Source: Gammaproteobacteria bacterium (GTDB lineage: Bacteria; Pseudomonadota; Gammaproteobacteria; Eutrophobiales; Eutrophobiaceae). From it: a DNA stretch of 64,000 nucleotides. The position numbers and the translations under genes are program-made. Position 1 is the stretch's first letter, and every line of letters starts with the position of its first letter. The notes beneath the pieces were generated by a model. That model was given only the letters and a program-made list of their open reading frames with translations, did not search any database and was not told where the DNA came from. Shown here one piece after another: positions 19,177 through 57,765 of the stretch. The stretch is from the NCBI GenBank assembly GCA_965220815.1, contig OZ244846.1:2244353-2308352 (forward strand), read 5' to 3'.

Positions 19177-19220
19177 GGGGTCAGAGTAAGAAATTCTGCA
19201 AGAATTTTTACTCTGACCCC
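19177..19220. repeat. REP family 1 copy (GGGGTCAGAGTAAGAAATTCTGCAAGAATTTTTACTCTGACCCC)
   Basis: 44-bp palindrome between recJ and prfB. First of five copies in the window. Confidence 0.8.
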
Positions 19221-19242
19221 AAATATCGTAAAATCTGACCTT

Positions 19243-20341
19243 ATGCTTGAACTCACGTCAATCACCGCCCGCATCAAAGACTGCCAGGGAAGAATCGAAT
19301 CCCTGAGGAGGTATCTTTGACTTCGATGTCAAGGTCAAACGCCTGAATGAAGTCAGGCGGGAACTTGAAAAACCGGATATCTGGAGTGAGCCCGAACGCG
19401 CCCAGGCGCTGGGCAAGGAACGGGCGCTGCTTGAAAAAACGGTCGGGGCGATAGAAGCCGTCAGTACGGGAATGGACGATGTCGAGTTGTTGTTCGATAT
19501 GGCGAAGCAGGAAAACGACGTCGAAGCCATGGAAGAAGTTGTTGCCGACCTTGACAAATTCACCGCACAGGTTGAGGAGATGGAATTTCGCCGCATGTTT
19601 TCCGGCGAGATGGACCCGAATCATGCTTTTCTCGATATCCAGTCAGGTTCCGGCGGCACCGAAGCACAGGATTGGGCGGAAATGCTGCTGCGCATGTACC
19701 TGCGCTGGGGCGAACAACGGGGGTTCGCTACCGAGTTGATCGAAGTATCGCCCGGGGAAGTGGCCGGTATAAAAAGCGCTACGGTCAGGTATGAAGGCGA
19801 CTACGCGTACGGCTGGCTACGCACCGAAACCGGGGTGCACAGGCTGGTGAGGAAGTCCCCGTTTGATTCCGGCAACCGGCGCCATACTTCGTTCGCCTCC
19901 GTGTTCGTTGCGCCGGAAATAGATGACAATATCGAGGTGGACATCGATACTTCCGACCTGCGCGTGGACACTTACCGGGCGAGCGGGGCGGGCGGGCAGC
20001 ACGTAAACAAGACGGATTCCGCGGTAAGGCTGACCCATATCCCCACGGGCACCGTCGTACAGTGCCAGAACGATCGTTCCCAGCACAAGAACCGGGACCA
20101 GGCAATGAAACAAATGCGCGCCAAACTATACGAACTGGAACTGCAGAAGCGCATGGCGGAACAAAAGGCGCTGGAGGAATCCAAGGTCGACATCGGCTGG
20201 GGCAACCAGATCCGCTCTTACGTGCTGGATCAGTCCAGGATCAAGGATTTGCGTACCGGCGTGGAGACCGGCAATACCCAGGCCGTCCTGGACGGCGACC
20301 TGGACCGGTTCATGGAGGCCAGCCTCAAGGCCGGGGTATAA
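19243..20341 (+). CDS. prfB: Peptide chain release factor 2, expressed through a programmed +1 ribosomal frameshift at 19315-19321 (CTT TGA C)
   Basis: ORF1 reads [25 protein letters not shown] then an in-frame TGA at 19318. An internal SD-like GAGGAGG lies 3 nt upstream of CTTTGAC. The +1 frame continues [12 protein letters not shown]… into the 289-aa body with SPF and GGQ motifs. The join is approximately 19243-19317 + 19319-20341. Confidence 0.9.
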
Positions 20342-20347
20342 TACCTT

Positions 20348-21832
20348 ATGACTAAAGACGACAACGAGATCATCAGGCAGCGGCGCGCGCAGCTGGAGGA
20401 ATTGCGCGCATCCGGCAACGCCTACCCCAACGACTTCAGGCGCAATATGCTGGCTGCCGACCTGCATGCCCGTTACGCTGATATGGACCGGGAAGAGTTG
20501 GAGGCAGAGGACGAAAAGTTCCATCTCGCGGGCAGGATGATGAGTCGCCGGGTCATGGGCAAGGTCGCGTTTGCCCATATCCTTGACATGTCCGGCCAGG
20601 TCCAGCTTTTCATCAGGCGTGATGCCTTGCCGGACGGGGACTATAGCGCATTCAGGAAATGGGATATCGGCGATATTATCGGCGTGACCGGCAGCATCTT
20701 CAGGACAAAAACCGGGGAACTCTCGATCCAGGCTGATTCCGTCACGCTGCTGGCCAAGTCCCTGCGACCCCTGCCGGAGAAGTTCCATGGCCTGTCCGAC
20801 CAGGAAACCCGCTACCGCCGCCGTTACCTGGATTTGATCACCAATGAAACCACCAGGCAGACATTCCAGGTCCGCAGTCGCGTGATCAACCTGGTCCGTG
20901 CTTACCTGGGCGGCAAGGGGTTTCTGGAAGTGGAAACGCCGATGATGCAGGCCATTCCCGGTGGCGCCGCGGCGCGGCCGTTTGTTACGCATCACAATTC
21001 CCTGGATATGGAACTGTACCTGCGCATCGCGCCGGAGTTATACCTGAAAAGGCTGGTCGTCGGCGGTTTTGAGAAAGTATTCGAAATCAACAGGAATTTT
21101 CGTAACGAAGGACTGTCGCTGCAGCACAATCCCGAATTTACCATGCTCGAGTTTTACTGGGCTTATGTCGGCTACGAGGACATGATGGCGCTGACTGAGG
21201 ACATGCTGCGTAACCTGGCGAAGGAAGTGAAAGGGGACAGCATCTTCGAATACCAGGGGGAAACCTGTGATTTCAGCAGGGACTTTCAGCGCATGAGTGT
21301 ACGGGAGGCCATTCTTGCCCATAACCCGGACATATCGGCGGGTGACCTGGAAGACCTTGACAGGCTGCGCGGCATAGCCGCCGGTCTGGGCGTGGAGGTA
21401 AAACAGGGTTACGGGATCGGTAAATTGCAGGTTGAATTATTTGAGAAAACCGTGGAGGCAAAACTCAGGCAACCCACGTTCATCACCGGTTATCCGATCG
21501 AAGTATCGCCCCTGTCCCGGCGTAATGATACTCAACCCGACCTGGCGGACCGGTTTGAGCTGTTTGTCGGCGGGCGCGAGATCGCCAACGGATTCTCCGA
21601 GTTGAACGACCCCGAAGATCAGGCCGGGCGATTTCGCCTGCAGGCCGAAGAGAAAGCCGCTGGTGACGAGGAGGCCATGCACTACGATGCCGACTACATC
21701 ACCGCCCTGGAATACGGTATGCCGCCCACCGCCGGGGAAGGTATCGGCATAGACCGGCTGGTCATGCTGCTGACGGATTCGGCATCCATTCGCGATGTAA
21801 TCCTGTTCCCCCAGCTACGCACAAAGGAATGA
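20348..21832 (+). CDS. lysS: Lysyl-tRNA synthetase (class II)
   Basis: OB-fold anticodon-binding N-terminus, class II motifs (…FRNEG…, …GGxGxGIDR). Immediately downstream of prfB as in other gammaproteobacteria. Confidence 0.9.
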   Translation: MTKDDNEIIRQRRAQLEELRASGNAYPNDFRRNMLAADLHARYADMDREELEAEDEKFHLAGRMMSRRVMGKVAFAHILDMSGQVQLFIRRDALPDGDYSAFRKWDIGDIIGVTGSIFRTKTGELSIQADSVTLLAKSLRPLPEKFHGLSDQETRYRRRYLDLITNETTRQTFQVRSRVINLVRAYLGGKGFLEVETPMMQAIPGGAAARPFVTHHNSLDMELYLRIAPELYLKRLVVGGFEKVFEINRNFRNEGLSLQHNPEFTMLEFYWAYVGYEDMMALTEDMLRNLAKEVKGDSIFEYQGETCDFSRDFQRMSVREAILAHNPDISAGDLEDLDRLRGIAAGLGVEVKQGYGIGKLQVELFEKTVEAKLRQPTFITGYPIEVSPLSRRNDTQPDLADRFELFVGGREIANGFSELNDPEDQAGRFRLQAEEKAAGDEEAMHYDADYITALEYGMPPTAGEGIGIDRLVMLLTDSASIRDVILFPQLRTKE

Positions 21833-21839
21833 GACAGGT

Positions 21840-21882
21840 GGGGTCAGAGTAAGAATTTCGCCAGAAATTTTACTCTGACCCC
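21840..21882. repeat. REP family 1 copy
   Basis: GGGGTCAGAGTAAGAATTTCGCCAGAAATTTTACTCTGACCCC directly after the lysS stop. Confidence 0.8.
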
Positions 21883-22018: not shown

Positions 22019-22384
22019 ATGTCCAAAGAGACTACTTTAAAACCCTTGGCAGCAGCATTGGGGACCACGTTCGCAGTTTCGCTGTCCCTCAGCCCCATTG
22101 CCAATGCCGCCGACAACCCATTCAGCATGACCGAGTTGTCCCGGGGTGGTTACATGGTTGCCGACGCGCACGGAGGTGAAGGCAAGTGCGGCGAAGGCAA
22201 GTGCGGCGAAGGTAAATGCGGCGAAGACAAGAAGGAAGGCGAAGGCAAGTGCGGCGAAGGCAAGTGCGGAGAAGACAAGAAGGAAGGCGAAGGCAAATGC
22301 GGCGAAGGCAAATGCGGAGAAGACAAGGAAGAAGGCGAGGGTAAATGCGGCGAAGGCAAGTGTGGTGACGGCAACGACGCATGA
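22019..22384 (+). CDS. Sec-secreted low-complexity protein with nine EGKCG motifs, the putative substrate ('precursor') of the downstream DUF692/DUF2063 enzymes (HvfA/bufferin-like)
   Basis: Strong RBS (AGGAGG 7 nt upstream). Signal peptide MSKETTLKPLAAALGTTFAVSLSLSPIANA|AD. The mature region is (GEGKCG)n interspersed with EDKKEG and ends GDGNDA, with 9 Cys, all in GKCG context. Immediately upstream of a translationally coupled DUF692-DUF2063 pair. Confidence 0.8.
   Translation: MSKETTLKPLAAALGTTFAVSLSLSPIANAADNPFSMTELSRGGYMVADAHGGEGKCGEGKCGEGKCGEDKKEGEGKCGEGKCGEDKKEGEGKCGEGKCGEDKEEGEGKCGEGKCGDGNDA
22170..22372 (+). repeat. Coding tandem repeat array (15-nt GAAGGCAAGTGCGGC units in a 48-nt higher-order unit) encoding the EGKCG repeats
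   Basis: Read directly. Several near-identical units occur back to back. The spurious track ORFs on other frames and strands (22122..22574, 22146..22454, 22150..22374) arise from this array. Confidence 0.8.
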
Positions 22385-22394
22385 TATGCGGCAA

Positions 22395-22470: not shown

Positions 22471-23361
22471 ATGCCTGGATCATACCCGGTACAGGGAGCC
22501 GGTCTGGGTCTGCGGCGGGCCTTCATGGGCTCGCTCGCAGACTCGTCGGGCTGGTTGCCGGAAATCGGCTTCATGGAAGTGGCGCCGGAGAACTGGATCG
22601 ACGTAGGAGGCCGCTTCGGGCGGCGCTTTCGCGAAATAGCCGAACGGGCGCCGCTTGTGTGTCACGGGTTGTCGCTCAACCTCGGCGGCCCGGCGCCCCT
22701 GGATGAGGCGTTCCTCCATAAAGTAAGACAGTTCCTCGATGCTTTCAATGTCCGTTGTTACAGCGAGCACCTCAGTTATTGCGGTGATGACGGCCACCTG
22801 TACGACCTGATGCCGATTCCATTCACGGAAGACGCGGTCCACTATACCGCCGCCAGGATCAGGCGCGTCCAGGATATTATCGGGCGGCGCCTGGCCATTG
22901 AAAACGTGTCCTATTACGCGGCGCCCGGACAGGAGATGACGGAAACGGAATTTATCAATAACGTGCTGGTCGAAGCCGACTGCGACCTGCTGCTGGACGT
23001 CAATAACATTTATGTCAACAGTATCAACCACCGCTATGATGCCGAGGCCTGGCTGAAGTCGCTGCCGGCGGAACGCATCGCTTACGCCCATGTTGCCGGT
23101 CATTACGTCGAGGCCGAGGACCTGAGGGTGGATACCCACGGCGCAGACGTGATCGATCCCGTTTGGAAGCTGCTCGAGACGGCCTACGCACATTTCGGTA
23201 TTTTCCCAACCCTGCTTGAACGGGATTTCAATATTCCCCCATTGCCCGAGTTGCTTGGTGAAGTCGGCAGGATTAGCCGGCTCCAGTCCGCTCAGACAGC
23301 ACATGGGGACGGACTTAAGTCCGTCCCCGGACAGCGTCTCCGGACAGAAAGTTCATCCTGA
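22471..23361 (+). CDS. DUF692 / MNIO (multinuclear non-heme iron oxidative enzyme, MbnB/HvfB/BufB-like) TIM-barrel protein
   Basis: Motif set typical of DUF692 (…GLGLRR…, …EVAPENW…, …YSEHLS…, …AIENVSYY…, …[11 protein letters not shown]…, …HVAGH…). 296 aa. Confidence 0.85.
23305..23328. repeat. REP family 2 copy (GGGGACGGACTTAAGTCCGTCCCC) embedded in the 3' end of the DUF692 ORF
   Basis: 24-bp perfect palindrome. The last ~20 codons of the DUF692 gene are encoded by it, so the tail may be artefactual. Confidence 0.7.
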
Positions 23362-24167
23362 TGAACCCGTCCTTGGCCAGGGACTCCTTTAAGGACATCC
23401 AGTACCGGTTTACCCGGCACATTCGCGACCCGGACAACGTACCGGCGCCGGAGGATATCGAAGAGCGCCGGATGGCGATCTACCGCGACCTGCTGTATCG
23501 CAACGTGGAAAGCTTCCTGGCGAACAGTTTTCCGGTGATGAGAAAGGTGCTCAAGGATGATGAATGGCATTCGCTGGTGCGCAAATATTTCAAAAACCAC
23601 CGGGCCCGAACGCCCCTGTTCCCCAGGATGCCCCAGGAGTTTCTCCAGTACCTGCAGGATGCAAGGCAAACCGCCGTAAGCATATACCCGTTCCTGCTCG
23701 AACTGGCTCACTACGAATGGGTGGAACTGGCCTTGTCCCTGGACACACGGGAGATCAGGCAGGACGGCATCAACCCGGACGGTGAGTTACTCTCAGGCGT
23801 TCCGGTATTGAACGAATTGTCCTGGTCCCTGGCCTATGAATACCCGGCACATCGTATCGGTCCGGATTTCCTGCCCGAAGCAAAACCGGCACAGCCTGTC
23901 TGCCTGCTCGTCTATCGGGACCGGCAGGACAAGGTAAGGTTTATCGAACTGAACCCCCTGGCCGCGCGCCTGGTCGATTGCCTCAGGGAGAATAAAGGCG
24001 GCAAAACCGGCCGGGAAATCCTCACGGAGATAGCTGCGGAAATAGCGCACCCCGACCCTGAGGCCGTGATCAGCGGCGGCGGCTCTGTACTTGAAGACAT
24101 GCGGGAAAAACAAATTGTCCTCGGAACGGAAGATGACGTCATTCCCGCGCATGCGGGAATCCAGTAG
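23361..24167 (+). CDS. DUF2063-family protein (MbnC/HvfC/BufC-like partner of MNIO enzymes)
   Basis: N-terminal motif F..IRDPDN..AP…RM.IYR.L….VESFL..SFPV…. Start overlaps the DUF692 stop (TGATG). Confidence 0.8.
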   Translation: MNPSLARDSFKDIQYRFTRHIRDPDNVPAPEDIEERRMAIYRDLLYRNVESFLANSFPVMRKVLKDDEWHSLVRKYFKNHRARTPLFPRMPQEFLQYLQDARQTAVSIYPFLLELAHYEWVELALSLDTREIRQDGINPDGELLSGVPVLNELSWSLAYEYPAHRIGPDFLPEAKPAQPVCLLVYRDRQDKVRFIELNPLAARLVDCLRENKGGKTGREILTEIAAEIAHPDPEAVISGGGSVLEDMREKQIVLGTEDDVIPAHAGIQ

Positions 24168-24192
24168 ACAAAGAGTCGCCCTGAGGGCGACA
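24137..24192. repeat. REP family 3 copy (two adjacent hairpins: GTCATTCCCGCGCATGCGGGAATCCAGT … CAAAGAGTCGCCCTGAGGGCGACAC)
   Basis: Nearly the same compound element recurs in inverted orientation at about 57707-57765. Sits between the convergent DUF2063 and argG genes. Confidence 0.7.
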
Positions 24193-24201
24193 CATTAATA
24201 A

Positions 24202-25423: not shown

Positions 25424-25447
25424 GGGGACGGATTTAAATCCGTCCCC
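25424..25447. repeat. REP family 2 copy (GGGGACGGATTTAAATCCGTCCCC)
   Basis: Perfect 24-bp palindrome between the NUDIX gene and argG. Confidence 0.8.
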
Positions 25448-31235: not shown

Positions 31236-31350
31236 AAACCTATACTTTGTTAGCTACTTGACTAAGTAGTATATAGGCTGATTATAAAATGTCAACACTT
31301 TTTTTAAAAAAATAGAACAGGGATGAACACACGCATTGCAAACTTTTCCA

Positions 31351-31416
31351 GGGTCAGAGTAACTTCGGCACTGACATTGACACCGGCTATGCATCCCGGG
31401 ATTTTACTCTGACCCC
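31351..31416. repeat. REP family 1 variant copy (arms GGGTCAGAGTAA … TTACTCTGACCCC with an enlarged 40-nt loop)
   Basis: Arms match family 1 but the centre differs. Located in the TetR/bcp divergent intergenic region. Confidence 0.6.
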
Positions 31417-31437
31417 TTACATCTTTATAATGCCCTT

Positions 31438-36259: not shown

Positions 36260-36671
36260 GGTATTTTTCGATACCAATATCCTCGTCTATGCGTACGACC
36301 GGCAAGATCCGGTCAAACAGGAACGGGCCTTCAATATCCTTGCTGATGCTATCAGCAATGAGAATGGTGTCGTATCAGCACAGGTCCTGGGCGAATTTTA
36401 CAATGCAACTACCCGGCGTACTTCCAACCCGCTCCCAGAAGAAGTAGTGAGGGAAGCAATATCCCTGTTTGCTACCTTGCCGGTTATAGACATTGACCTC
36501 GCACTGGTGCAACGGGCGGTGGGCACCTGCAGCCGCTACCGGATTTCCTACTGGGACTCCTTGATCATAGCTGCCGCGGAAAAAGCAGGCTGTACGCGGA
36601 TTTACTCGGAGGATTTCAATACGGGCCAAACCTATCACGACATCCTTGTCGTCAATCCCTTTCAGTCCTGA
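36228..36671 (+). CDS. vapC: VapC-type PIN-domain toxin
   Basis: VFFDTNILVYAYD… with the PIN acidic quartet pattern. 147 aa from the ATG at 36228. Confidence 0.75.
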   Translation: MKTDLAAITDKVFFDTNILVYAYDRQDPVKQERAFNILADAISNENGVVSAQVLGEFYNATTRRTSNPLPEEVVREAISLFATLPVIDIDLALVQRAVGTCSRYRISYWDSLIIAAAEKAGCTRIYSEDFNTGQTYHDILVVNPFQS

Positions 36672-36834
36672 CCCGGAATCGGAAAATAGCAGAATTAGAA
36701 ACTGTGCTCCATCCGTTCAAACGCTTCATGTTAGACTGACCCCAGCATTCAAATTTGAAAGATAAAGTGATTAGAAATAAATAGTTACAGGTTTTTCATC
36801 CTGATAATTTCAGATCGCTAACGCGGCACTGCCG

Positions 36835-37047
36835 TCAGGATTCGTTTTTGGCGTCAGTGCTGCGTGCGGTGACGATTTTGGATAAGGCATCAGGGTATTC
36901 CACCCAAAGAGAATATTCCGGCAAGGTCATGCCGAGGAAATCGTAAATTGACTTGTTACTATTGCCTTGGTGCCACCGCTCGATATAGGTATCTATATCG
37001 GTAAGCCGGGCGGTCCCGGAAAGGTAATCTTGAATGAAATCAGACAC
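36835..37047 (-). CDS. Hypothetical small protein, 70 aa
   Basis: ORF 8 nt downstream of the MORN gene stop. No family assignment. Confidence 0.3.
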   Translation of the reverse strand: MSDFIQDYLSGTARLTDIDTYIERWHQGNSNKSIYDFLGMTLPEYSLWVEYPDALSKIVTARSTDAKNES

Positions 37048-37055
37048 GGATTTTC

Positions 37056-38582
37056 CTACTGGTATTCCCTGTCATAAACCATTCCGCCTACATAAGTAAC
37101 AGTTGCCGATACAGCGCCATCGGCAGAACGGGAGACCCATTGACCGCTCTTCTTGCCGTCCACGTAAAGACCTTCAAATACACCGCCATCATCGTAGCGG
37201 AAGACCCACTCACCGCTCTTCTTGCCCTCTACATAGGAGCCTTCCTCCACATGGGCGGAGGTGCGGAGGGTCCACTGGCCGTGCCGCTTGCCATCCATAT
37301 AAGGGCCTTCGGATACGCTGCCATCAGTGTAGCGAATGACCCACTGACCCTGCCGCTTGCCGTCCACGTGGGGCCCTTCCGCTACAATGACGCTGGCAGA
37401 TGAGCGCATCCCACCGAGATGCATGGCGTCCACGTAGCGGTCGTTCTCCACAGTGCCATCGGCGTAACGAATGATCCCCTGGCCTTGTGGCATGCCGTCC
37501 ACGTAGAAGCGTTCGTATACATTTCCATCGGCGTAACGGAAGTTCCAATGGCCGTGCCGTTCGTCGTCCACGAAGGAGCCTTCCTCCACATTTCCATTGG
37601 CATGACGGAAGATCCACTGGCCGTTCCGCTTGCCCCCCACATAGGAGCCTCTCGCTATACTGCCCTCGAAGGTGCGATGGGTCCACTGGCCGTGCATCTC
37701 GCCGTTCACATAAGAGCCTCCCCCATCCTCGCCATCGGCAAAGCGAATCAGCCAATGACCATGCTTAATGCCGTTCACGTAGGGGCCTTCCTCCACATCG
37801 CCATTGGCATGGCGAATCACCCAATGACCGTGCTGTTTGCCGTCCACGAAGGAGCCTCCCCCCACATCGCCACTGGCATAGCGAATGACCCACTGACCGT
37901 GTTCCTTGCCGTCCAAGTAGGAGCCTTCGAGTACAGCAGCGTCATCAGCAAGGCGAATCACCCACGGACCGTGCTGTTTGCCGTCCACGAAGGAACCTTC
38001 ATACACAACAGCGTCATCGACGGAGCGCATGATCCAGCGGCCGTGCCGCTTGCCGCCCTTAAACTGCCCTGTGTTTGTGTTCTTTGTCTCTCCATCACCT
38101 TTCAAATCCCAGGTATCCTCACCCATTCCTTCCGCCAGTCCGTTGGCACATCTGCCGCTCCATGTGACGGTTGAGTTGGCTATCAGACTGGGGTTCCAGA
38201 TATAACATCCGGTTGGGTCTTCCAACTCCATCCAGCATGCGCTGCCCTCCGGTTTGTCCGCGCACGTCATCTTGTCTTCCTGTAGCTTTTCTGCATCCGA
38301 TGGTGCGCCAATTCCGTTGCCCATCATGGCCGCAATTACGCTTTCCGCTATGCCCGCCTCCCGGAGCGCAACAAGCTGTTCTTCCGACATGTCAAAGTCG
38401 GTTCGACCGGACCGGATTATGGCGATGATGATTTCAGTCTCCAGCCCAGCCCGGTTCAAGCGCAGGATGTCCTCATTGGTGAGCGCCGCATCGTCGGCGC
38501 CAGGGGCCGGTGTGATAACAAGTATTAGAAGCCATACAGAAACCATTTGCCGGAAGAGGCTAGTCAGGGGCATCGTTTTCAT
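37056..38582 (-). CDS. Secreted MORN-repeat protein, about 15 tandem ~23-aa MORN-like units
   Basis: Signal peptide (MKTMPLTSLFRQMVSVWLLILVITPAPGA), then a Cys-containing N-terminal domain, then repeated G.Y.DGK.HG.WVIR.ADG…EG units. The start at 38582 forms an ATGA overlap with the upstream methyltransferase-like gene. Confidence 0.7.
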   Translation of the reverse strand: MKTMPLTSLFRQMVSVWLLILVITPAPGADDAALTNEDILRLNRAGLETEIIIAIIRSGRTDFDMSEEQLVALREAGIAESVIAAMMGNGIGAPSDAEKLQEDKMTCADKPEGSACWMELEDPTGCYIWNPSLIANSTVTWSGRCANGLAEGMGEDTWDLKGDGETKNTNTGQFKGGKRHGRWIMRSVDDAVVYEGSFVDGKQHGPWVIRLADDAAVLEGSYLDGKEHGQWVIRYASGDVGGGSFVDGKQHGHWVIRHANGDVEEGPYVNGIKHGHWLIRFADGEDGGGSYVNGEMHGQWTHRTFEGSIARGSYVGGKRNGQWIFRHANGNVEEGSFVDDERHGHWNFRYADGNVYERFYVDGMPQGQGIIRYADGTVENDRYVDAMHLGGMRSSASVIVAEGPHVDGKRQGQWVIRYTDGSVSEGPYMDGKRHGQWTLRTSAHVEEGSYVEGKKSGEWVFRYDDGGVFEGLYVDGKKSGQWVSRSADGAVSATVTYVGGMVYDREYQ

Positions 38583-39397
38583 CTCTGGCATTCCAGTTCC
38601 CAACCCATGCTGCCAGCCAATTCTGCGAGTTCCCGGTTCCGCCCTTTCACGAGTTTCGCCAAGTTATCAGAGAGCAGAACCCCACATCCCTTAAGGTCCT
38701 GGCTGGGCTTTGCCCCGCAGTCAGACCACAAAACCTGCCACGCCTCACATTGCGTGCGTTCCAGCAACTTCAGCGGCTTTGTAGGCCAGAAAAACGGATA
38801 CCAGGCCGCAAACGACTGATCTTGGCATTTCAGTTTTTTACATGTCTCAGCCAGGGAATTCCAATCCCTGTCCCTGGCTGCATTTGGAGAAAACGGAGGG
38901 TCGAGAAATGTCAAATCTTTGTCATTTTTATCGACGGCTCTTGTGAATCCATCATCTTGACAGAATGTCACTTCAACATTTTCGGGAACATATCCCCTTT
39001 TTTTCAGGTTGTACAAATCTTCATCACTATAATGGCATGCAACTTCCTCGCTGTTATCAAAGAGTGAAATCTGTACCCGTTTGAATCTTTTAGCAAGTAC
39101 ATTTGCTACGACCAGCCAACCGGACGGATATTTTTCCGGCGAATATTTTTTGACTATGTCCACATAAAAGTTGTCATTTGTTTCGCTATCAATTAAACAT
39201 TTGACGCCATGCTGCCATCCCCTGCCTTTGCTCAGGATATGAACAGGCGCGCCTGCGTGGCAATCAATATAGTGAATGGAATCTGAAGCCGAGGATAAAT
39301 TCCTTGCAATAATGGTCAGTATGAAATGTTTCCAGACATCACCCCTGTTTCCAGCTTTTTTGGAGTGATTGTAGCGTTTAACGTGGGAGTTGCCCAT
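38579..39397 (-). CDS. RlmJ/DUF519-family N6-adenine methyltransferase-like protein, 272 aa, divergent and low GC
   Basis: YNHSKKAGNRGDVWKHFIL matches RlmJ YRHSFHAGNHADVLKH. YIDCHAGAP matches YLDTHAGAG. FLDPPF matches IDPPYE (catalytic DPPY/F). AAWYPFF matches ALWYPV. Confidence 0.55.
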   Translation of the reverse strand: MGNSHVKRYNHSKKAGNRGDVWKHFILTIIARNLSSASDSIHYIDCHAGAPVHILSKGRGWQHGVKCLIDSETNDNFYVDIVKKYSPEKYPSGWLVVANVLAKRFKRVQISLFDNSEEVACHYSDEDLYNLKKRGYVPENVEVTFCQDDGFTRAVDKNDKDLTFLDPPFSPNAARDRDWNSLAETCKKLKCQDQSFAAWYPFFWPTKPLKLLERTQCEAWQVLWSDCGAKPSQDLKGCGVLLSDNLAKLVKGRNRELAELAGSMGWELECQR

Positions 39398-39421
39398 GAT
39401 CAGTATCAGTTGTGCTTCTGT

Positions 39422-39907
39422 TCAGTTGTGCTTCTCTAGCATCTCATTCAGCCAGGCTTTGGGGGGCTTGAGTTCTTTGCCTTTCAGCTTTAAAACCCCG
39501 TTCCGGACTACTTCAATTTCCAGGCGCTGCCTACCGTTTCTCCGGTAACTTCCGATCCAGCCCATCTGGCCAGAGTTGGGCAGGTCCGCCCAATTGCCAG
39601 CCATGCTTACGCCGTTATCCACTAAGACCCGGGTGAATGCCTTATGGTCGAATCGAATCGTACCGTTGTCCACGTAGTTAAACTGCCCTGCCAGTTTCTT
39701 TGCCAACCAGTCACTGTAGTAATTCGGGTTACGATACTCCTTAACTGCTTCCTTGATTGCATCCTCAATTACGGATTTTTTTAAAGCATACTCAACGTGT
39801 GCTTCCACTCTTTCCCAAACCTCGTCCGTGACTTCAATTCCACGCCAAATCTCATGGCCATTTGGCCATTCCTCTCTTTTTATTTCTACTTCGATGATTT
39901 TATTCAT
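39422..39907 (-). CDS. Hypothetical protein, 161 aa, first gene of the low-GC three-gene operon
   Basis: ORF with RBS-compatible spacing. No recognisable domain. GC content clearly below the window average. Confidence 0.4.
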   Translation of the reverse strand: MNKIIEVEIKREEWPNGHEIWRGIEVTDEVWERVEAHVEYALKKSVIEDAIKEAVKEYRNPNYYSDWLAKKLAGQFNYVDNGTIRFDHKAFTRVLVDNGVSMAGNWADLPNSGQMGWIGSYRRNGRQRLEIEVVRNGVLKLKGKELKPPKAWLNEMLEKHN

Positions 39908-39943
39908 CTTTAGGCTTTTGGCTCATCTGTGTGTGGACAAGGA

Positions 39944-40450
39944 CTAATACTCCGTCACACCCAGCTTGTCCTTGATTTTGACAATCAGTTCTTCGCGGCG
40001 ATGATGCATGTCGATCAGCGGTTCCTTGCGTAACTTTGCGATTTCCTCCGAGTCATAGGGCACGAACGGGTCGGGAAGTTCATTTTTGCTGAAATTCAGC
40101 AGCATCCAGTTCATCACGTCGGCCAGTTCCTGGTCCGAGATGGGGGCGCCGGCCGCGCCCGGGACCTGTACGATGAATTCCCTGCCGCCGGGCACGTGCA
40201 GGAAGTAACCGACGAAATCGTTCATCTTCGGTACGTTACCCTTGGAGCCGGACCCGTCCGGCAGGTGGCAGCCCTGGCAGTTCAGGATGTAGTTCTGGCG
40301 CGCAAGTATTTCATTGGCGCCGGTAGTTGCGCTGGCGCTTAACAGGATCAGGAGCAGGAATCCGGTGAATAATGTGTTGCCAAGGGTGGCATGTTTGTCT
40401 ACGTCCCTGTTCCTGGATACCGGCCATTCCCTGGCCGGTATGACGAACAA
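39944..40450 (-). CDS. Monoheme c-type cytochrome, periplasmic, candidate electron acceptor for the adjacent amine dehydrogenase
   Basis: A single CQGCH motif. The proposed TTG start at 40450 yields a signal peptide (…TLFTGFLLLILLSASATTGA). The track ORF extends further upstream into mauA. Confidence 0.6.
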   Translation of the reverse strand: MFVIPAREWPVSRNRDVDKHATLGNTLFTGFLLLILLSASATTGANEILARQNYILNCQGCHLPDGSGSKGNVPKMNDFVGYFLHVPGGREFIVQVPGAAGAPISDQELADVMNWMLLNFSKNELPDPFVPYDSEEIAKLRKEPLIDMHHRREELIVKIKDKLGVTEY

Positions 40451-43365: not shown

Positions 43366-43377
43366 AGCCGGGCGCTG

Positions 43378-43557
43378 TTACGGGTTACGTGCGGCGGATG
43401 CCTTGAACAAATTCGTGATGACGTCCATTGACCCTTCCAGGCGCGACATGCGTTGCTCCAGCCCCGACATACGATCGCGCAAGCCATTGATGTCCCTGTG
43501 AATCGCCCACCAGGCGACGATTACAGTGATGATTACCGCGATAGTGTCATAATTCAT
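43378..43557 (-). CDS. Small membrane protein, about 59 aa
   Basis: Single TM helix (TIAVIITVIVAWWAI) followed by a coiled-coil-like tail. Weak call. Confidence 0.3.
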   Translation of the reverse strand: MNYDTIAVIITVIVAWWAIHRDINGLRDRMSGLEQRMSRLEGSMDVITNLFKASAARNP

Positions 43558-43638
43558 GGTTCCTTCTCCCGTCCGATCAGACTCCAAAAAAGTAAAACTT
43601 CCAATGAATGGGCAATGTAATTTCCTTGAACGCCGTTG

Positions 43639-44076: not shown

Positions 44077-44149
44077 GATGTTCCTCCTTTACTGGTTCAA
44101 GTTTGGGGACAGAATTTAATTCTGTCCCCGGTTAAGCCGGATATATTAT

Positions 44150-46931: not shown

Positions 46932-46974
46932 GGGGTCAGAGTAAGAATTTCGTCAGAAATTTTACTCTGACCCC
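46932..46974. repeat. REP family 1 copy
   Basis: GGGGTCAGAGTAAGAATTTCGTCAGAAATTTTACTCTGACCCC upstream of, or within the 5' end of, dctP. Confidence 0.8.
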
Positions 46975-50592: not shown

Positions 50593-50617
50593 GGGGACGG
50601 ATTTCAAATCCGTCCCC
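50593..50617. repeat. REP family 2 copy (GGGGACGGATTTCAAATCCGTCCCC)
   Basis: Adjacent to REP1 copy 50634-50676. Two different REP families in tandem. Confidence 0.8.
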
Positions 50618-50633
50618 GTCGAACCCTGATGTC

Positions 50634-50676
50634 GGGGTCAGAGTAAAATTTCTGGCGAAATTCTTACTCTGACCCC
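50634..50676. repeat. REP family 1 copy
   Basis: GGGGTCAGAGTAAAATTTCTGGCGAAATTCTTACTCTGACCCC. Confidence 0.8.
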
Positions 50677-51871: not shown

Positions 51872-51972
51872 CCGGCACCTCGAACTGGTGGTATAACCTG
51901 GAGTCTATCAAGTTCCGTACGAAAAAAAACACCGGCTGAGTACTCAACCGGTGCAGCGATCAGGGGGCAGAA

Positions 51973-53019
51973 TTAATTCCGTTCCCCCATATACTCTGCG
52001 TCGGACAGTGTCTTCAAATGCCGGCGCATGGCTACGCCGGGCCGGTCTGCCGGCACGTCAATCTCGTAGAAGTCCGGCGTGCGGTCGATATCCTGCATGC
52101 GGTTTATGTGTTCGATGGCGAACACGTCCTCGCTGAACGCCGCCTGGTTGGCCTTCAACATGAACGCGCCCATCTCTTCGTCATCAATACAGAAATTGCG
52201 GCACTGGGCATAATAGTAGTTGGTTGAAGTATTGGTTTCCGGGGTGATCAACTGCGCCACCTTGACCAGGGGTTGCAACTTCTCCATTTTTTCCGGCTTG
52301 TCCAGGTTCTTCAGTATGCCCGTATTGACATGCAGGCCGGGTGTGACGAACAGGGAGCCGGAACTTCGCATGGCTCTTTCGTCCTCCCAGCCCAGGGGTT
52401 TTGAATAGATGGACGGCAACACGCATTCCACGTGACGCCATACCTCGAAGTGTTCGTCCTCCATCGTGGACTCGATGGGCGCCCTCGCATACTCCGGAGT
52501 GCCGAAGGTCTTGTCGTGCAGGAAACTGAGGTGGGACAGGTCCAGCAGGTTCTCGTGCAGGTGCACGTAGCTCCCCTTGATGTTGAGAAAACCGATGTTT
52601 ACCGCCCAGTCCGGGTGATCGAAGTAGTCCTGGTGCGGCAACAGGGCTTCATCGGCCAGGTCCGGGTCTCCAGGCCAGATCCAGATGAAGGGTTTTTTCT
52701 CGATGACCGGGAATGCGCGCACGCCGATGTTCTGCGGCGGACGGTCCTGGGATGGGACTGCAACACAGCGGCCCGAGGTGTTGTATCGAAACCCGTGATA
52801 GCCGCATTCCAGGATATCACCGTGCAGTTTTCCTTCGGACAGGGGGAAGGAGCGGTGGCAGCAGCGGTTCTGCAGGGCTACCGGGGCGCCGTCCTCCTTG
52901 CGGAACAACACGGTACTGATGCCAAGGTATTGCCGGGAGAAAAGTTTGCGGCCTATTTCATCGCTACGGGCAGCCACGTACCAGGCATTGCGGACAAGCG
53001 GGGTATCACGATTGGCCAT
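51973..53019 (-). CDS. Rieske [2Fe-2S] non-heme iron oxygenase alpha subunit (VanA/KshA-like monooxygenase or demethylase)
   Basis: Rieske motif CCHRS-x15-CGYHGF. The mononuclear iron region has the spacing H..LLD..H(LS)FLHD (HLHENLLDLSHLSFLHD). Confidence 0.8.
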   Translation of the reverse strand: MANRDTPLVRNAWYVAARSDEIGRKLFSRQYLGISTVLFRKEDGAPVALQNRCCHRSFPLSEGKLHGDILECGYHGFRYNTSGRCVAVPSQDRPPQNIGVRAFPVIEKKPFIWIWPGDPDLADEALLPHQDYFDHPDWAVNIGFLNIKGSYVHLHENLLDLSHLSFLHDKTFGTPEYARAPIESTMEDEHFEVWRHVECVLPSIYSKPLGWEDERAMRSSGSLFVTPGLHVNTGILKNLDKPEKMEKLQPLVKVAQLITPETNTSTNYYYAQCRNFCIDDEEMGAFMLKANQAAFSEDVFAIEHINRMQDIDRTPDFYEIDVPADRPGVAMRRHLKTLSDAEYMGERN

Positions 53020-53150: not shown

Positions 53151-53173
53151 GGGGCGGACTTAAGTCTGTCCCC
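53151..53173. repeat. REP family 2 copy (GGGGCGGACTTAAGTCTGTCCCC)
   Basis: Slightly degenerate palindrome upstream of the DUF485 gene. Confidence 0.6.
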
Positions 53174-55194: not shown

Positions 55195-55464
55195 AACGGG
55201 AAGTCAATACTCGCTTACTCATGGTATATACTTCTATGCATGAAAGAGGCAAGGTTATTCACCGATGGTCAAAGTCAGCATGTTATGCTTATCCCAAAGG
55301 ATAATCCCTGGCGGGCGATGTTTGCCGCTTGCGGGAAATTTACTTCGGATTTTATGTCGCAACGAGACCAGGGTTACCAGGAAAACAGGGCAGATATCAG
55401 TTATAGTTCACACACAGACTCCTCGATTTTTTCACAAAGGTTTTAGTGATGAGCGGATAACCAT

Positions 55465-57666
55465 ATGATTTTCTTTTCCAACAAGAATCGGCCTTTTCAC
55501 TACGGCCCCTATCCCCTTGAGAGACTGGCCCGGGATGAACAGGTTATCGAACATGAACGGCAGGAAGGGCGGAATACTCAACCTGTTATCAGCAACGGCT
55601 CGTCATCAAATTATGCCGCCGCGCTGGAGAAGTATCACAAAATCTTCAAACAATTCTGTGAAGGTGACGTCGCCCCGGCCGAAGCGCCTGTCCCTGATGA
55701 TCTGGAGAGGCGCTCCATAGATGTGAAGGGGGCCGGTTATTTCCTTGATGCCGGCCAGATTGGTATATGTGAGTTGACCGATTCCTGCTGGTATCAGGGC
55801 GCGACAGCGGAAAATCACAATCATGGCGTCGTCGTGCTGGCGGAACACAGCCGGTTACCGGAAGCGGGTAACCTGGCCCGGAGTTGGCTTGAGGGTTCCC
55901 TCCACGCTACTGCCCAGATGCGCGCCTTTGAAATAGCCGTAGGCATAGCCAACCATATCCGGGCCATGGGATTTAATGCCACGGCTTATGACGATCGGAA
56001 TGACCGGATCGATATAGCCCGGTTAACCGTGCTGGCCGGTCTCGGTGTCCGGGACAACGGGGAGGTCGTCAATCCATACCTGGGCGCCGGCTACTCGGTT
56101 GCCGTGGTGACGACGGATTATGCGCTGGCGACGGACAAACCACTGGCGCACAAAGCAAAAAACGGCAGCAGCCTGGCGTACTGGCTGGGCGTCGGCGGCG
56201 CCACGTCTGGCCTGGAGCGGTGGCGCCGGGCAAACCGGAAGACCCATCTCAGCAACTACCCGATGGAGCAGGTAAAACGCGTGGATCGCCCCACAACGCT
56301 GATCCTGGATGATGAAGTGCCGCGGGTGCCGAAACGGGCCGGTTTCTTCGAACGGGCAATTCATGGCGACCTTGACAAGAAAGCCCAGGTGGAACGCCAG
56401 CGGTTTTCCTTCAAACACCCGTTTGCCGCGGCCATGCTGAAGCAGATCCGAGGCATGGTGCCGCACCAGGACGGTCCCGTTGCAGAAACAGAAGCGGCAG
56501 AGTTGAATGATCCCGAGACCAACACCAGGGCGCTGAAATCGTTGTCCTACGCCCTGGGATCTGAGATCACCGGGATCTGCGAAATACCTGACTACGCCTG
56601 GTATTCGCACAAGGAGGACGGTTCAGAGATCAAACCGTACCACAAATATGCCGTCGTCTGCCTGATCGACCAGGGCTATGACACCATGGAAGGCGCTTCC
56701 GGTGACGATTTCATTTCCGGGGCGCAATCCATGCGCGCCTACATGCGCGGCGCATTGATCGCCGGCATCATGGCTGAGCATATACGCTCAATGGGCCATC
56801 CCGCTCGGCCGCAAACCAACGCAGACTCCCACGTGCTGCATATCCCCCTGGTCATGTGGGCGGGACTGGGCGAACTCAGCCGTATTGGCGAGCTGGTGCT
56901 CAACCCGTTCATCGGCCCGCGCTTCAAGACCGTCGTCATGACCACCGACCTGCCCCTGGTCCCGGATAAACCCGTTGACTTCGGCCTGCAGTATTTCTGC
57001 TCCAACTGTCTCAAGTGCGCGCGGGAATGCCCCTGCGACGCCATTCCCTTCGGTGACAAGGTGATGTTCAACGGTTATGAGATGTGGAAACCGGACGTCG
57101 AGCGCTGCACCCGTTACCGCCTGACCAACCAGCGCGGGCTGGCCTGCGGCCGCTGCATGAAGACCTGCCCGCTGAACAAGGTCATAAGCTGGGACGGCCC
57201 CATCGCCACCCAGGCAGCAAGCTGGTGCGGGGTAAACGCATTCTGGCTGAAACCCCTGCTGGTGCCGATCGCGGTAAAACTGGATGATATGCTGGGTCAC
57301 GGCATACGCAACCCCGCCAAGAAGTGGTGGCTGGACCTGGAAATAGTGGATGGGGTCTGTGTCGACCCGCGTAAAGGCGTGAACCAGCGGGACCTGGACG
57401 TAAACCGCAAGATTGACGTACGGAAACACAAGGTCGCCTATTATCACGCCGACATGATGCCGCCGCCGAACAGTTCGGGCATCGCCATGATGGTGAAGAG
57501 AAAAGACGGGATTGCCGCGGCGGTCAAGGTCGAAACAGTCGAACAGGCCCTGGCTCGAAAAGCCCGGGGCGGCCCCGTTCCGGACCATTACATACCGACA
57601 CCCCCCATGGATACCGGCGAATCACAAAGAGAGGATGTGACAGGGTTCAATCCCTATCATAACTGA
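55465..57666 (+). CDS. Cytoplasmic reductive-dehalogenase-like (RdhA/QueG superfamily) protein with an internally duplicated catalytic-type domain and a C-terminal 2x[4Fe-4S] module
   Basis: No Tat signal. Residues ~100-230 and ~375-500 are paralogous. …AGLGVRDNGEVVNPYLGAGYSVAVVTTDYALATDKP corresponds to …AGLGELSRIGELVLNPFIGPRFKTVVMTTDLPLVPDKP, and the second matches the RDase/QueG AGLGWIGK..LLI.P.FG family motif. Ferredoxin motifs CSNCLKCARECP and CGRCMKTCP follow. Confidence 0.6.
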   Translation: MIFFSNKNRPFHYGPYPLERLARDEQVIEHERQEGRNTQPVISNGSSSNYAAALEKYHKIFKQFCEGDVAPAEAPVPDDLERRSIDVKGAGYFLDAGQIGICELTDSCWYQGATAENHNHGVVVLAEHSRLPEAGNLARSWLEGSLHATAQMRAFEIAVGIANHIRAMGFNATAYDDRNDRIDIARLTVLAGLGVRDNGEVVNPYLGAGYSVAVVTTDYALATDKPLAHKAKNGSSLAYWLGVGGATSGLERWRRANRKTHLSNYPMEQVKRVDRPTTLILDDEVPRVPKRAGFFERAIHGDLDKKAQVERQRFSFKHPFAAAMLKQIRGMVPHQDGPVAETEAAELNDPETNTRALKSLSYALGSEITGICEIPDYAWYSHKEDGSEIKPYHKYAVVCLIDQGYDTMEGASGDDFISGAQSMRAYMRGALIAGIMAEHIRSMGHPARPQTNADSHVLHIPLVMWAGLGELSRIGELVLNPFIGPRFKTVVMTTDLPLVPDKPVDFGLQYFCSNCLKCARECPCDAIPFGDKVMFNGYEMWKPDVERCTRYRLTNQRGLACGRCMKTCPLNKVISWDGPIATQAASWCGVNAFWLKPLLVPIAVKLDDMLGHGIRNPAKKWWLDLEIVDGVCVDPRKGVNQRDLDVNRKIDVRKHKVAYYHADMMPPPNSSGIAMMVKRKDGIAAAVKVETVEQALARKARGGPVPDHYIPTPPMDTGESQREDVTGFNPYHN

Positions 57667-57677
57667 GCCTTTATCGT

Positions 57678-57698
57678 CATACCGGGCTTGACCCGGTA
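57678..57698 (+). terminator. Perfect 8-bp stem hairpin ATACCGGG-CTTGA-CCCGGTAT 12 nt after the rdhA-like stop
   Basis: Read directly. No obvious downstream U-tract, so it may be a structural element rather than an intrinsic terminator. Confidence 0.35.
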
Positions 57699-57706
57699 TC
57701 CAGTAA

Positions 57707-57765
57707 AATGACGTGTCGCCGGAGGCGACTCTTTGCCCACTGGATTCCGGCTTTCGCCGGAATGA
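57707..57765. repeat. REP family 3 copy, inverted relative to the 24137-24192 copy
   Basis: The reverse complement reads GTCATTCCGGCGAAAGCCGGAATCCAGTGGGCAAAGAGTCGCCTCCGGCGACACGTCAT. The stems are conserved, the loops vary. Confidence 0.7.

Follow-up and report, generated by a model that had tools for sequence, protein, structure and literature searches.

Three families of REP repeats in a gammaproteobacterial genome window, one of them the probable partner of a RAYT/TIRYT-class Y1 transposase

Results

Three palindrome families in the window

We consider it highly probable that the three palindrome families dispersed through the 64,000-nucleotide stretch analysed here (the window) are REPs, that one of them, Family 1, is a non-autonomous repeat paired with a Y1 enzyme of the RAYT/TIRYT class, and that the repeats are not gene-island markers. 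The original prediction had proposed two roles for them; the link to a REP-associated tyrosine transposase is borne out for Family 1, as shown in relatives, whereas the role as hotspots or junctions is not, as the breakpoint comparison below indicates. Every copy listed in that prediction, 12 in all, is present, and the families occur far above chance; the window holds about 16-17 copies in total, four or five more than had been counted. The copies are given here by position, those absent from the earlier list being marked as new.

8985-9009: Family 2, degenerate, between the convergent aroC and MFS genes
19127-19165, plus strand: degenerate Family 3-like unit, CGCCATTCCCGCG + ATGCCGGGTCAAGCCCGGCAT, directly next to the 19177 Family 1 copy (new)
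19177-19220: Family 1 REP with 13-bp arms GGGGTCAGAGTAA/TTACTCTGACCCC and an inner stem, recJ/prfB spacer
21840-21882: Family 1 REP, 8 nt 3' of the lysS stop codon
23305-23328: Family 2, perfect palindrome, 3' tail of the mbnB/DUF692 ORF
24137-24193, plus strand: Family 3 unit, CGTC-tagged hairpin CGTCATTCCCGCGCATGCGGGAATCCAGT and then GTCGCCCTGAGGGCGAC hairpin
25424-25447: Family 2, perfect palindrome, argG/NUDIX spacer (upstream of argG)
31350-31416: Family 1 variant whose arms are 41 nt apart, divergent tetR/ahpC spacer
36731-36743, minus strand: solo degenerate Family 1 arm TTAGACTGACCCC (new)
40375-40445, minus strand: Family 3 unit (new)
44105-44129: Family 2 variant GGGGACAGAATT/AATTCTGTCCCC, downstream of dctM (new)
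46932-46974: Family 1 REP in the 5' end of the dctP ORF, codons 20-34 of 369
50593-50617: Family 2, perfect palindrome, left half of a tandem with Family 1
50634-50676: Family 1 REP, right half of this Family 2 + Family 1 tandem, which had been predicted correctly
51963-51986: Family 2-like degenerate palindrome, Rieske gene 3' end (new)
53151-53173: Family 2-like degenerate palindrome, Rieske/DUF485 divergent spacer
57675-57767: Family 3 head-to-head dimer, spacer before paaA

The 13-nt arm of Family 1 has 11 matches in the window with up to two mismatches, compared with 1.1 expected, a number attained by none of 100 shuffles. Ten of these 11 matches pair up into five palindromes, and the solo arm at 36731 is possibly the remnant of a further Family 1 copy. 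The element, ~43-57 nt long, is a short imperfect palindrome predicted to form a stable single-strand hairpin, with DNA folds of -18.3 and -18.7 kcal/mol for standard copies (the latter for the 19177 copy, z -9.5) and -14.1 kcal/mol for the 31350 variant, the z-scores ranging from -4.2 to -9.5; stable folding as single strands is predicted for all copies of the three families (z -4.2 to -10.8). Between genomes the inner stems vary in sequence and keep their pairing. A search for an asymmetric tail found none: the AT-rich Family 1 flanks prolong the palindrome symmetrically, so that orientation is defined by the loop only. The 50634 and 21840 copies are exact reverse complements of each other.

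The core of Family 2, a short perfect palindrome whose arms vary in a compensatory way, is GGGGAC(G/A)GA; complementarity at position 7 and in the inner triplet was seen in 16/16 copies retrieved by a pattern that left pairing free. Both Family 1 and Family 2 begin with GGGG, end with CCCC and have AT-rich flanks, and neither carries the GTAG tag, so that they are not REPs of the classical GTAG-tagged type.

Family 3 had been described as occurring twice, in opposite orientations. Indeed, 24138-24180 has an inverted match at 57724-57766 (86% over 43 nt); at 57.7 kb, however, the copy is a dimer of two inverted CGTCAT...CCAGT units flanking GTCGCCGGAGGCGAC, and further units lie at 40375 and 19127. 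CGTCAT heads are found at 24137, 57675 and, on the minus strand, 40445. Relatives have clusters too, with several units at 1930-2179 of L202 and, in L199, an array of 377 nt made up of related units. Family 3 is dRS3-like in its CGTC tag and in its arrangement as head-to-head dimers or clusters.

As had been predicted, copies lie, on the reading of the ORFs, in the 5' region of dctP and in the 3' end of the DUF692 ORF, and copies alter gene ends, which applies to the dctP 5' end and the mbnB and hvfC 3' ends. The dctP signal peptide needs an in-frame start upstream of the Family 1 copy, for which there is a sole ATG/GTG/TTG. Within the mbnB/DUF692 tail Family 2 reads GDGLKSVPG, and the 24137 Family 3 unit overlaps the hvfC stop codon, adding 11 codons and extending the hvfC/DUF2063 C-terminus with DDVIPAHAGIQ. 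The last 14 nt of the 51963 copy overlap the end of the Rieske ORF (51973), and the 50634 copy stops 1 nt short of the CN-hydrolase ORF end (stop codon 50678-50680, minus strand).

Family 1 flanks a Y1 transposase gene in relatives

On comparison of sequences from relatives and metagenomes, Family 1 is the probable repeat partner of a RAYT/TIRYT-type Y1 (HUH) transposase. The window itself contains no transposase gene. The original prediction had suggested a search for a rayT-type gene, and such a gene, flanked by Family 1, was found in close relatives and in metagenomes. A Y1 motif scan of 118 Family 1-bearing stretches found it in three genomes (L086, L017 and L085), in each of which Family 1 arms lie within ~60 nt of an end of the transposase gene; a Y1 gene bracketed by inverted Family 1 copies was seen in these and in L205-L209. 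The transposases score 52-57 bits with Pfam Y1_Tnp (cut-off 23), and among NCBIfam models REP_Tyr_transpos fits them best, though its 70-72 bits stay below the curated cut-off of 80 (IS200 gives 21-26 bits). A PDB search returned E. coli TnpA-REP (4ER8, E=1.3e-4) as the sole match, and the HVH and YIELNP motifs are invariant across the three aligned transposases.

Among 80 metagenomic homologues, which were retrieved by protein pattern and not by DNA pattern, a Family 1 arm adjoins the gene in 61 (within 350 nt, up to two mismatches), when by our estimate chance would place an arm there at ~0.015 per locus. The typical layout is an inverted pair of arms around the gene, with the plus arm at a median of ~71 nt upstream (49 loci) and the minus arm ~112 nt downstream (47 loci); most of the other 19 homologues have inverted flanks with a common GGGTCA-type core. 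CBDBDW01, JAPPLI01, JAPPFN01 and JAPPIS01 share the transposase locus, RAYT-yiiD-ctpB-M23 peptidase, in synteny at 91% identity; the first of them matches the window at 91-98% identity across 18 kb. In L206 a Family 1 copy at 2808-2850, upstream of the RAYT gene, is identical to the 21840 copy of the window. Three close homologues of the transposase that were looked up belong to MAGs of the clade other than JAJDUB01, the 97%-identical one. Flanks of the GGGGAC type, that is, of Family 2, were found at none of 83 Y1 transposase loci examined, nor was a transposase flanked by Family 3 arms found among the loci examined.

Recurrence beyond the window

Recurrence elsewhere in the genome, on which the original prediction had staked its families, was seen for all three on eight other contigs (58 kb) of JAJDUB01, a 97%-identical MAG, with at least 12 copies of Family 1, two of Family 2 and three of Family 3; these stretches were chosen for Family 1, so that the Family 2 and Family 3 counts alone are unbiased. 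Stretches of RHO3_bin_19, likewise chosen by motif, hold at least 22 Family 1 copies, and among the matches listed, exact 13-nt Family 1 arms are found across many orders of Gammaproteobacteria. No real Family 1 match was obtained among 72,556 plasmids and none among 2.9 million viral contigs, which argues against a plasmid- or phage-borne mobile element. A tRNA scan of the window found none, and a literature search by the repeat sequence strings returned unrelated primers only.

Turnover at orthologous sites and alternative explanations

Orthologous spacers within conserved synteny carry different families, or no repeat, in relatives. The Family 2 insertion at 23305 is shared with L201 and missing in L199 and L200, the 31350 Family 1 variant is missing from L199-L201, and the 50593-50676 tandem is missing from L202 and L203. 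In L202, the closest genome in the comparison (91-98% identical to the window), the 46932 copy is exactly reverse-complemented, flipped in place, at the orthologous site, and the array at the 40.4 kb site differs in size, the L202 spacer having a ~250-nt array of Family 2 and several Family 3 units. Some variable genes, among them NUDIX and Rieske, border on REP-bearing spacers.

Such presence and absence of copies at orthologous sites in close relatives is a poor fit to a conserved signal, and we think it unlikely that Family 2, and perhaps the others too, are functional RNA or DNA signals such as terminators, mRNA-stabilising 3' hairpins or operator sites. The hairpins are GC-rich, the 21840, 50634 and 44105 copies come shortly after stop codons, the 25447-25424 copy is terminator-like in score on the minus strand, and REPs of E. 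coli affect mRNA decay and translation, all of which would suit such a role. A role as intrinsic terminators is nonetheless not supported, since a T-rich tail, and a weak one, is found on just one of seven Family 2 copies and copies also lie 5' of genes and in ORFs. Furthermore, terminator-like sites are not above shuffles in the two regions scanned, copies are found not only upstream of genes but also within the ends of ORFs, between genes that are translationally coupled and in the promoter regions of divergent genes, and an Rfam scan of the window at the gathering threshold gave no match, the repeats included.

On the reading of the original prediction itself, core genes would meet accessory genes at these copies, which would mark or even bring about the junctions as recombination or insertion hotspots for gene cassettes, and this we regard as quite improbable. 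Across all three relatives compared, with LysS identities of 83-89%, the order thrA-thrC-recJ-prfB-lysS-hvfA-mbnB-hvfC-argG-aceFE-tetR-ahpC is kept, including recJ-prfB, the site of the 19177 copy. The Hvf-like cassette and its neighbours being thus fully conserved in order, the cassette is not an insertion bracketed by repeats. Gene content differs from L202 in three places, namely the 36.3-39.9 kb block, a deletion inside an amidase gene and a small gene at 43375-43628, and no repeats are found at their endpoints, which lie in unique sequence; the two junctions that were read, of the amidase deletion and of the small gene, are at short microhomologies, and REPs are absent at the alignment limits of the 36.3-39.9 kb block. 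Some variable genes do lie beside copies: the NUDIX gene, which the Family 2 copy at 25424 adjoins, is missing from L199, the Rieske gene, which has Family 2-like copies on its two sides, is missing from L203, and the dctMQP block, with Family 1 at 46932, is replaced in L204. Reoccupation of the same spacers by different families in different lineages also speaks for hotspots. No single recombinant repeat, however, was found at the site of the missing Rieske gene in L203, and the association with synteny breakpoints that the prediction had put up for checking showed no enrichment of REP-bearing spacers (Fisher odds ratio 1.9, p=0.47, by hand count), eight or nine REP-bearing spacers having no breakpoint and eight breakpoint spacers having no REP. 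A weak link of REP spacers with variable genes may be compatible with this sample.

Hardly tenable is a third explanation, by which Family 1 would be a DNA uptake sequence, or a MITE from a Tn3-family or other IS with GGGG-initiated terminal repeats, as the exact conservation of its arm across many orders and its GGGGTC start, resembling Tn3-family inverted repeats, might suggest: uptake sequences, which occur singly inside genes, are ruled out because the arms occur almost only in pairs, as palindromes in spacers; a Tn3-derived miniature element because no 5-bp target duplication is seen and the associated gene is a Y1 transposase; and a MITE in general by the shortness of the element, the absence of direct target-site duplications beside any copy, the lack of matches in the plasmid and viral collections and the gene between the arms, which encodes a Y1 and not a DDE transposase.

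Discussion

We propose that the three families are REPs, which would be small non-coding hairpin-forming repeats of spacers with fast turnover. By analogy with E. coli TnpA-REP and IS200/IS605, the Y1 enzyme would recognise the single-stranded Family 1 hairpin together with its conserved GGGGTCAG foot and would cut and rejoin at this site, by which copies could be seeded, removed or flipped in spacers. Family 2 shares the GGGG foot and the host clade with Family 1 and would probably be moved in trans by the Family 1 enzyme or a paralogue. To our knowledge, no dedicated transposase is known for the CGTC-tagged dRS3-like REP class, to which Family 3 is likened. Inserted copies would be transcribed with their neighbours and could alter the ends of genes; an influence on promoter spacing or on the stability of mRNAs is possible as well.

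The three families are new members of the known REP kind. Family 1 is closest to the TIRtrons (Di Nocera et al., 2013, PMC3733652), among which are the two TIR families that Stenotrophomonas maltophilia K279a carries. According to that paper, a RAYT-like Y1 gene is bracketed in TIRtrons at an approximately fixed distance by inverted repeats that are also dispersed through the genome, and the TIRs flanking TIRYT genes have the motif GGGGWSAS. To this motif GGGGTCAG of the Family 1 arm and GGGGACAG, a Family 2 variant, both conform, and self-complementary units, dimers and clusters are common to the TIRtron repeats and the window copies. The arm GGGGTCAGAGTAA is not spelled out in the text consulted, and the exact conservation of the Family 1 arm across many gammaproteobacterial orders is a further difference; the major Family 2 form, GGGGACGG, departs from GGGGWSAS at position 7 and flanks no gene found.

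With the REPs and BIMEs of E. coli the families share the short imperfect palindromes in spacers, the mosaic clusters of repeat types joined by linkers (50593/50634 and 19127/19177) and a cognate HUH/Y1 enzyme, TnpA-REP (RayT) being the sole solved relative of the transposases, which are only distantly similar to it; the E. coli GTAG tag is lacking here. The REPIN/RAYT system of Pseudomonas fluorescens SBW25 (Bertels and Rainey, 2011, PMC3116915) likewise has dispersed repeats tied to a single syntenic RAYT and persists vertically, and here the RAYT locus is syntenic in four genomes and copies are absent from the plasmid and viral collections. A REPIN, however, consists of two inverted REP hairpins, whereas Family 1 forms a single long hairpin, neither half of which is itself palindromic; REPIN-like architecture is seen here in the Family 3 dimer at 57675-57767 only. 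That family is in turn like Neisseria dRS3/CGTC-1 and other CGTC-tagged REPs as described in PMC3733652: its units begin with CGTC, ATTCCC-N8-GGGAAT is present in one of them, they occur as head-to-head dimers and as clusters in which other repeats are interspersed, and their read-through translation is ...VIPAHAGIQ. It differs in its host, a gammaproteobacterial MAG lineage and not Neisseria, in the coupling of its units to a second conserved hairpin, GTCGCC-N3/4-GGCGAC, and in stem sequences that vary with compensatory changes. Lastly, the in-frame copies at the N-terminus of dctP and the C-termini of mbnB and hvfC, apparently tolerated, recall the Rickettsia palindromic elements (RPEs) and intragenic REPs, from which they differ in being limited to gene termini and in that translation is predicted from sequence.

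One may go further and consider the Family 1 hairpin and its Y1 transposase as one ancient, chromosomally inherited pair, with the 13-nt arm unchanged across several orders of Gammaproteobacteria, copies that still appear, vanish and flip within species, and at least one copy, in the DctP signal peptide, whose translation is tolerated whichever way it is oriented. We offer this reading tentatively, as a possible though somewhat doubtful one; if it were true, the Family 1 arm would be far more conserved than classical species-specific REPs. Such conservation of the arm across orders is in any case unusual.

With the link taken from relatives, the window thus adds a well-resolved case in which a repeat of the GGGGWSAS type is tied to its transposase. 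The data give no support for REPs as signposts of genomic islands; direct comparison of near-identical genomes reveals gain and loss, array change and flipping of REPs. The repeats account for otherwise odd gene ends, namely the extended dctP start and the changed mbnB and hvfC tails, and likewise for the long "empty" spacers in this uncultured gammaproteobacterial lineage.

Three palindrome families

Original prediction and re-examination agree on three REP-like palindrome families (REP, repetitive extragenic palindrome) in the window; the copies first listed are all present, and it is their total that needs correction, to about 16-17 rather than 12. Single-strand folding gives a stable hairpin for every copy of all three families.

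Repeats and their gene context (assigned with Pfam)
19177-19220: Family 1 palindrome, recJ/prfB spacer
21840-21882: Family 1 palindrome, 3' of lysS and 5' of the HvfA-like peptide gene
23305: Family 2, tail of mbnB, before hvfC
24137: Family 3, end of hvfC, facing argG (minus strand)
25424: Family 2, argG/NUDIX gene spacer
31350-31416: Family 1 variant, 41 nt between arms, tetR/ahpC spacer
44105: Family 2-like, downstream of dctM
46932-46974: Family 1 palindrome, 5' end of dctP
50593 and 50634-50676: Family 2 plus Family 1 (exact reverse complement of the 21840 copy), amine oxidase/CN-hydrolase spacer
51963: Family 2-like, CN-hydrolase/Rieske spacer
53151: Family 2-like, Rieske/DUF485 spacer
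57675: Family 3 dimer, Fer4 protein gene/paaA spacer

With up to two mismatches, the Family 1 arm GGGGTCAGAGTAA is matched 11 times in the window against 1.1 expected, a number reached in 0 of 100 shuffles, and the five Family 1 palindromes account for 10 of the 11. Family 2, GGGGACGGAtttaaaTCCGTCCCC, has perfect copies at 23305, 25424 and 50593 and degenerate ones at 8985 and 53151; the copies at 44105 and 51963 had been missed by the first reading. When Family 2 was sought in the window and related genomes by a pattern without forced complementarity, the arms matched in 16 of 16 copies, position 7 pairing as G..C or A..T and the inner triplet as ATT/AAT, CTT/AAG, TTT/AAA or CCC/GG, and therefore the palindrome itself is maintained.

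In Family 3, the copies at 24137 and 57707 match in opposite orientations (86% over 43 nt), the latter being a head-to-head dimer (57675-57767), with extra units at 40375-40445 and, degenerate, at 19127-19165. Each unit consists of CGTCAT-stem-loop-stem-ATCCAGT followed by a GTCGCC...GGCGAC hairpin, and the stems differ between units with compensatory changes (ATTCCCGCG, ATACCGGG, ATTCCGGC, ATACCGGCC). Family 3 is of the CGTC-tagged class, which includes Neisseria dRS3, forms head-to-head dimers and, as far as the class is described in PMC3733652, has no known dedicated transposase.

The motifs were expected to recur elsewhere in the genome, and all three do so in other stretches of JAJDUB01 (MAG "Gammaproteobacteria bacterium jk18x1bzbins.61"), of which one stretch is 96-97% identical to window positions 60706-64000, which places the window in that species or a very close one. 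Eight others, 58 kb in all, hold 12 Family 1, 2 Family 2 and 3 Family 3 copies, of which only the Family 2 and Family 3 counts are unbiased, since Family 1 had served to select the stretches.

The window also holds, between two minus-strand genes, a large inverted repeat unrelated to the three families (4156-4277; two 53-nt arms with 83% complementarity and a 16-nt gap), each arm with three GCAGAT-type submotifs (TGATTTATCCGCAGATGACGCAGATTAACGCAGAT...).

Family 1 and a Y1 transposase

A search of one genome per species for Family 1 palindromes with exact arms returned at least 118 stretches. Among the matches listed, exact arms are found across many groups of Gammaproteobacteria, in MAGs as well as isolate genomes (Rheinheimera, Arenimonas and other Lysobacterales, Pseudomaricurvus, Pseudohongiella, Psychrosphaera, Woeseiaceae, Halieaceae, Methylococcales and Thiogranum), and in a few bins labelled as other phyla; a plasmid collection and 2.9 million viral contigs gave no Family 1 match. 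The inner stems vary by genome and are still complementary, for example AAATTC/GAATTT versus AAATACAG/CTGTATTT.

Scanning all ORFs of 118 Family 1-bearing stretches for the HUH...Y..NP motif revealed Y1 transposase genes in L086 (CBDBDW010000002.1), L017 (UBA5078) and L085 (Psychrosphaera), in each case with Family 1 arms directly at the gene ends; in L086 one arm overlaps the gene's last codons. The three proteins pass Pfam Y1_Tnp. Among NCBIfam models REP_Tyr_transpos scores best, at 70-72 bits, short of the curated 80, and the IS200 model gives 21-26 bits. Their sole solved relative is E. coli TnpA-REP (4ER8).

The protein family is very large by protein search. We picked 80 metagenomic loci by protein pattern, independently of the DNA motif (53-70% identity to the L086 protein). 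In 61 of the 80 the gene has a Family 1 arm with up to two mismatches no more than 350 nt away, against an estimated chance expectation of about 0.015 per locus, and the layout is stereotyped: GGGGTCAGAGTAA stands upstream at a median of about 71 nt in 49 loci and TTACTCTGACCCC about 112 nt downstream in 47. The other 19 are mostly flanked by inverted sequences with a common GGGTCA-type core, such as AAAGGGGTCAGCTTCG/CGAAGCTGACCCCTTT.

Close homologues (88-90% identical) are found in the MAGs JAPPLI01, JAPPFN01 and JAPPIS01, which share with CBDBDW01 a RAYT-yiiD-ctpB-M23 peptidase context (91% nucleotide identity over 3.7 kb). One Family 1 copy flanking the transposase locus is identical to the 21840 copy, and over 39.9-58.6 kb the window and CBDBDW01 share 91-98% identity. 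Judging from sequence, we conclude that Family 1 is the putative cognate repeat of the Y1 transposase found in relatives; the window's own genome very probably carries such a gene.

This arrangement is exactly that described for "TIRtrons", in which RAYT-like genes (TIRYTs) lie between inverted repeats that have GGGGWSAS in common and are able to give rise to families of dispersed repeats (Di Nocera et al., PMC3733652); the GGGGTCAG of Family 1 fits that motif. The Family 2 form GGGGACAG fits it as well, whereas the commoner form GGGGACGG does not. Within this clade Family 2 is present in JAJDUB01, JAPPLI01, CBDBDW01, VYCZ01, L200, L201 and L204; it was absent from the sampled distant Family 1 hosts. 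None of the 83 Y1 transposase loci covered had Family 2 arms (GGGGAC-type) as flanks.

Turnover and the question of junctions

Orthologous spacers carry different repeats in different genomes, as in three relatives sharing the lysS region (L199, L200, L201).

Repeats in orthologous spacers (window; L199; L200; L201)
recJ/prfB: Family 3-like and Family 1; remnant half; Family 2; unrelated hairpin
lysS/hvfA: Family 1; other palindromes; none; none
mbnB/hvfC: Family 2; 377-nt array with Family 3-like dimers; none; Family 2
hvfC/argG: Family 3; none; Family 2; none
tetR/ahpC: Family 1 variant; none; none; none

The tandem at 50593-50676 is missing from L202 (the CBDBDW01 stretch closest to the window's second segment) and L203, where the two genes overlap, and L204 has a Family 2-like copy in the corresponding spacer. 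At 40.4 kb, L202 has a larger Family 3 array than the window. The Family 1 copy at 46932-46974 stands exactly reverse-complemented at L202 8382-8424, between identical flanks. Relatives without strict Family 1-3 copies have other palindrome families in the same spacers (L203 14700-14960, L199 13129-13505), for example GGGAACCTCTGA...TCAGAGGTTCC and CCACTCCCGCGGAAGCGGGAGTCCAGT dimers. Between lineages, one repeat family appears to be replaced by another.

The suggestion that repeats bracket the Hvf-like cassette as an accessory gene set does not hold: the order thrA-thrC-recJ-prfB-lysS-hvfA-mbnB-hvfC-argG-aceF-aceE-tetR is intact in all three of L199-L201 (LysS 83-89% identical), and therefore the cassette is not an accessory insertion. 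In the second segment L202 and the window show six differences, and no repeat lies at the endpoints of gene-content breakpoints. Only the window has the block at 36.3-39.9 kb and a small minus-strand gene (43375-43628) bordered by short CGC-GTT microhomology. The amidase gene is internally deleted in the window, where ~45 nt from its start and ~40 nt from its end remain at ~47.1-47.2 kb; these remnants lie ~160 nt from the Family 1 copy, and the deletion junction falls within the gene, not in the repeat. More distant relatives do vary in genes beside REP-bearing spacers: NUDIX is lacking in L199, Rieske in L203, and the dctMQP block is replaced in L204. By hand count over the compared regions, 5 REP-bearing spacers are breakpoints and 8 are not, versus 8 and about 24 of those without REP (odds ratio 1.9, p=0.47); the repeats are therefore spread over spacers generally, some being hit repeatedly, and we find no evidence that they mark or make island borders.

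L203 and L204 also lack the 36288-39941 block (~3.6 kb), which contains low-GC3 ORFs, one of them of 515 aa with internal repeats at 37330-37994, and a degenerate solo Family 1 arm (36731-36743); L202 has an RHH/PIN toxin-antitoxin pair beside the block's position. The 43375-43628 product is ~70 aa with a hydrophobic stretch, and the amidase gene is intact (476 aa) at L202 8543-9973 in CBDBDW01, a genome 96% identical.

Gene ends and promoters

Three copies do alter gene ends, as originally proposed. In dctP the sole in-frame ATG/GTG/TTG leaving a signal peptide precedes the Family 1 copy, through which the frame is open in either orientation: the ORF in the window is predicted to read MKFGETILDIWGQSKISDEILTLTPGSIPRLCLLLFSLSV..., L202 is predicted to read WGQSKNFVRNFTLTP through the flipped copy, and dctP of L203, without the repeat, starts MKKFINPCLCLALIALFV. 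The predicted mbnB tail through Family 2 is GDGLKSVPG in the window and L201, and Family 3 adds DDVIPAHAGIQ to the predicted hvfC protein, which in L200 ends ...LGTE. Ahead of prfB and of ahpC, the right arm of Family 1 also places a TTTACT hexamer 16-17 nt upstream of -10-like hexamers, a consensus match only (19207-19234 and 31403-31431); relatives that lack the repeat keep the ahpC -10 hexamer and differ in the -35 region.

Around these genes we note further features. Homology to prfB begins at ~19243 (19243-19471), although the long ORF is 19472-20341, and CTTTGAC at ~19313-19319 looks like an RF-2 +1 programmed frameshift site. Upstream of mbnB/hvfC, a small ORF (22019-22384) encodes a signal peptide and ~11 EGKCG repeats, as in an HvfA-like precursor, and contains a 77-nt tandem duplication (22190-22266 and 22286-22362); the cassette keeps its place after lysS in L199-L201. 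The region's one canonical-looking intrinsic terminator (51929-51954, minus strand; 11-bp stem, then TTTTTTTT) lies just downstream of the Rieske gene, beside the 51963 copy; L202 conserves it, and so does L204 with another loop.

Discussion

The repeats are palindromic, vary in a compensatory manner and are dispersed over spacers; Family 1 is physically associated with a Y1 transposase gene in relatives; and turnover is rapid, including an in-place flip. Terminators, operators, uptake sequences and DDE-type miniature transposons each fail their own defining tests. By analogy with TnpA-REP and IS200/IS605 as outlined in PMC3479197 and PMC3333891, the transposase would recognise the single-stranded hairpin with its GGGGTCAG foot and cleave and rejoin at that foot, and the repeat might spread during replication. 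For the flip at 46932, recombination between the perfect 13-nt arms, or template switching between them, would be an alternative.

All three families are ordinary REP-type repeats, Family 1 being TIRtron/RAYT-associated, Family 2 a related short palindrome for which no partner was found, and Family 3 a CGTC-tagged REP. They belong to known kinds, as new members, and most notable are the Family 1 arm, exactly conserved across orders, and the polymorphisms within species.
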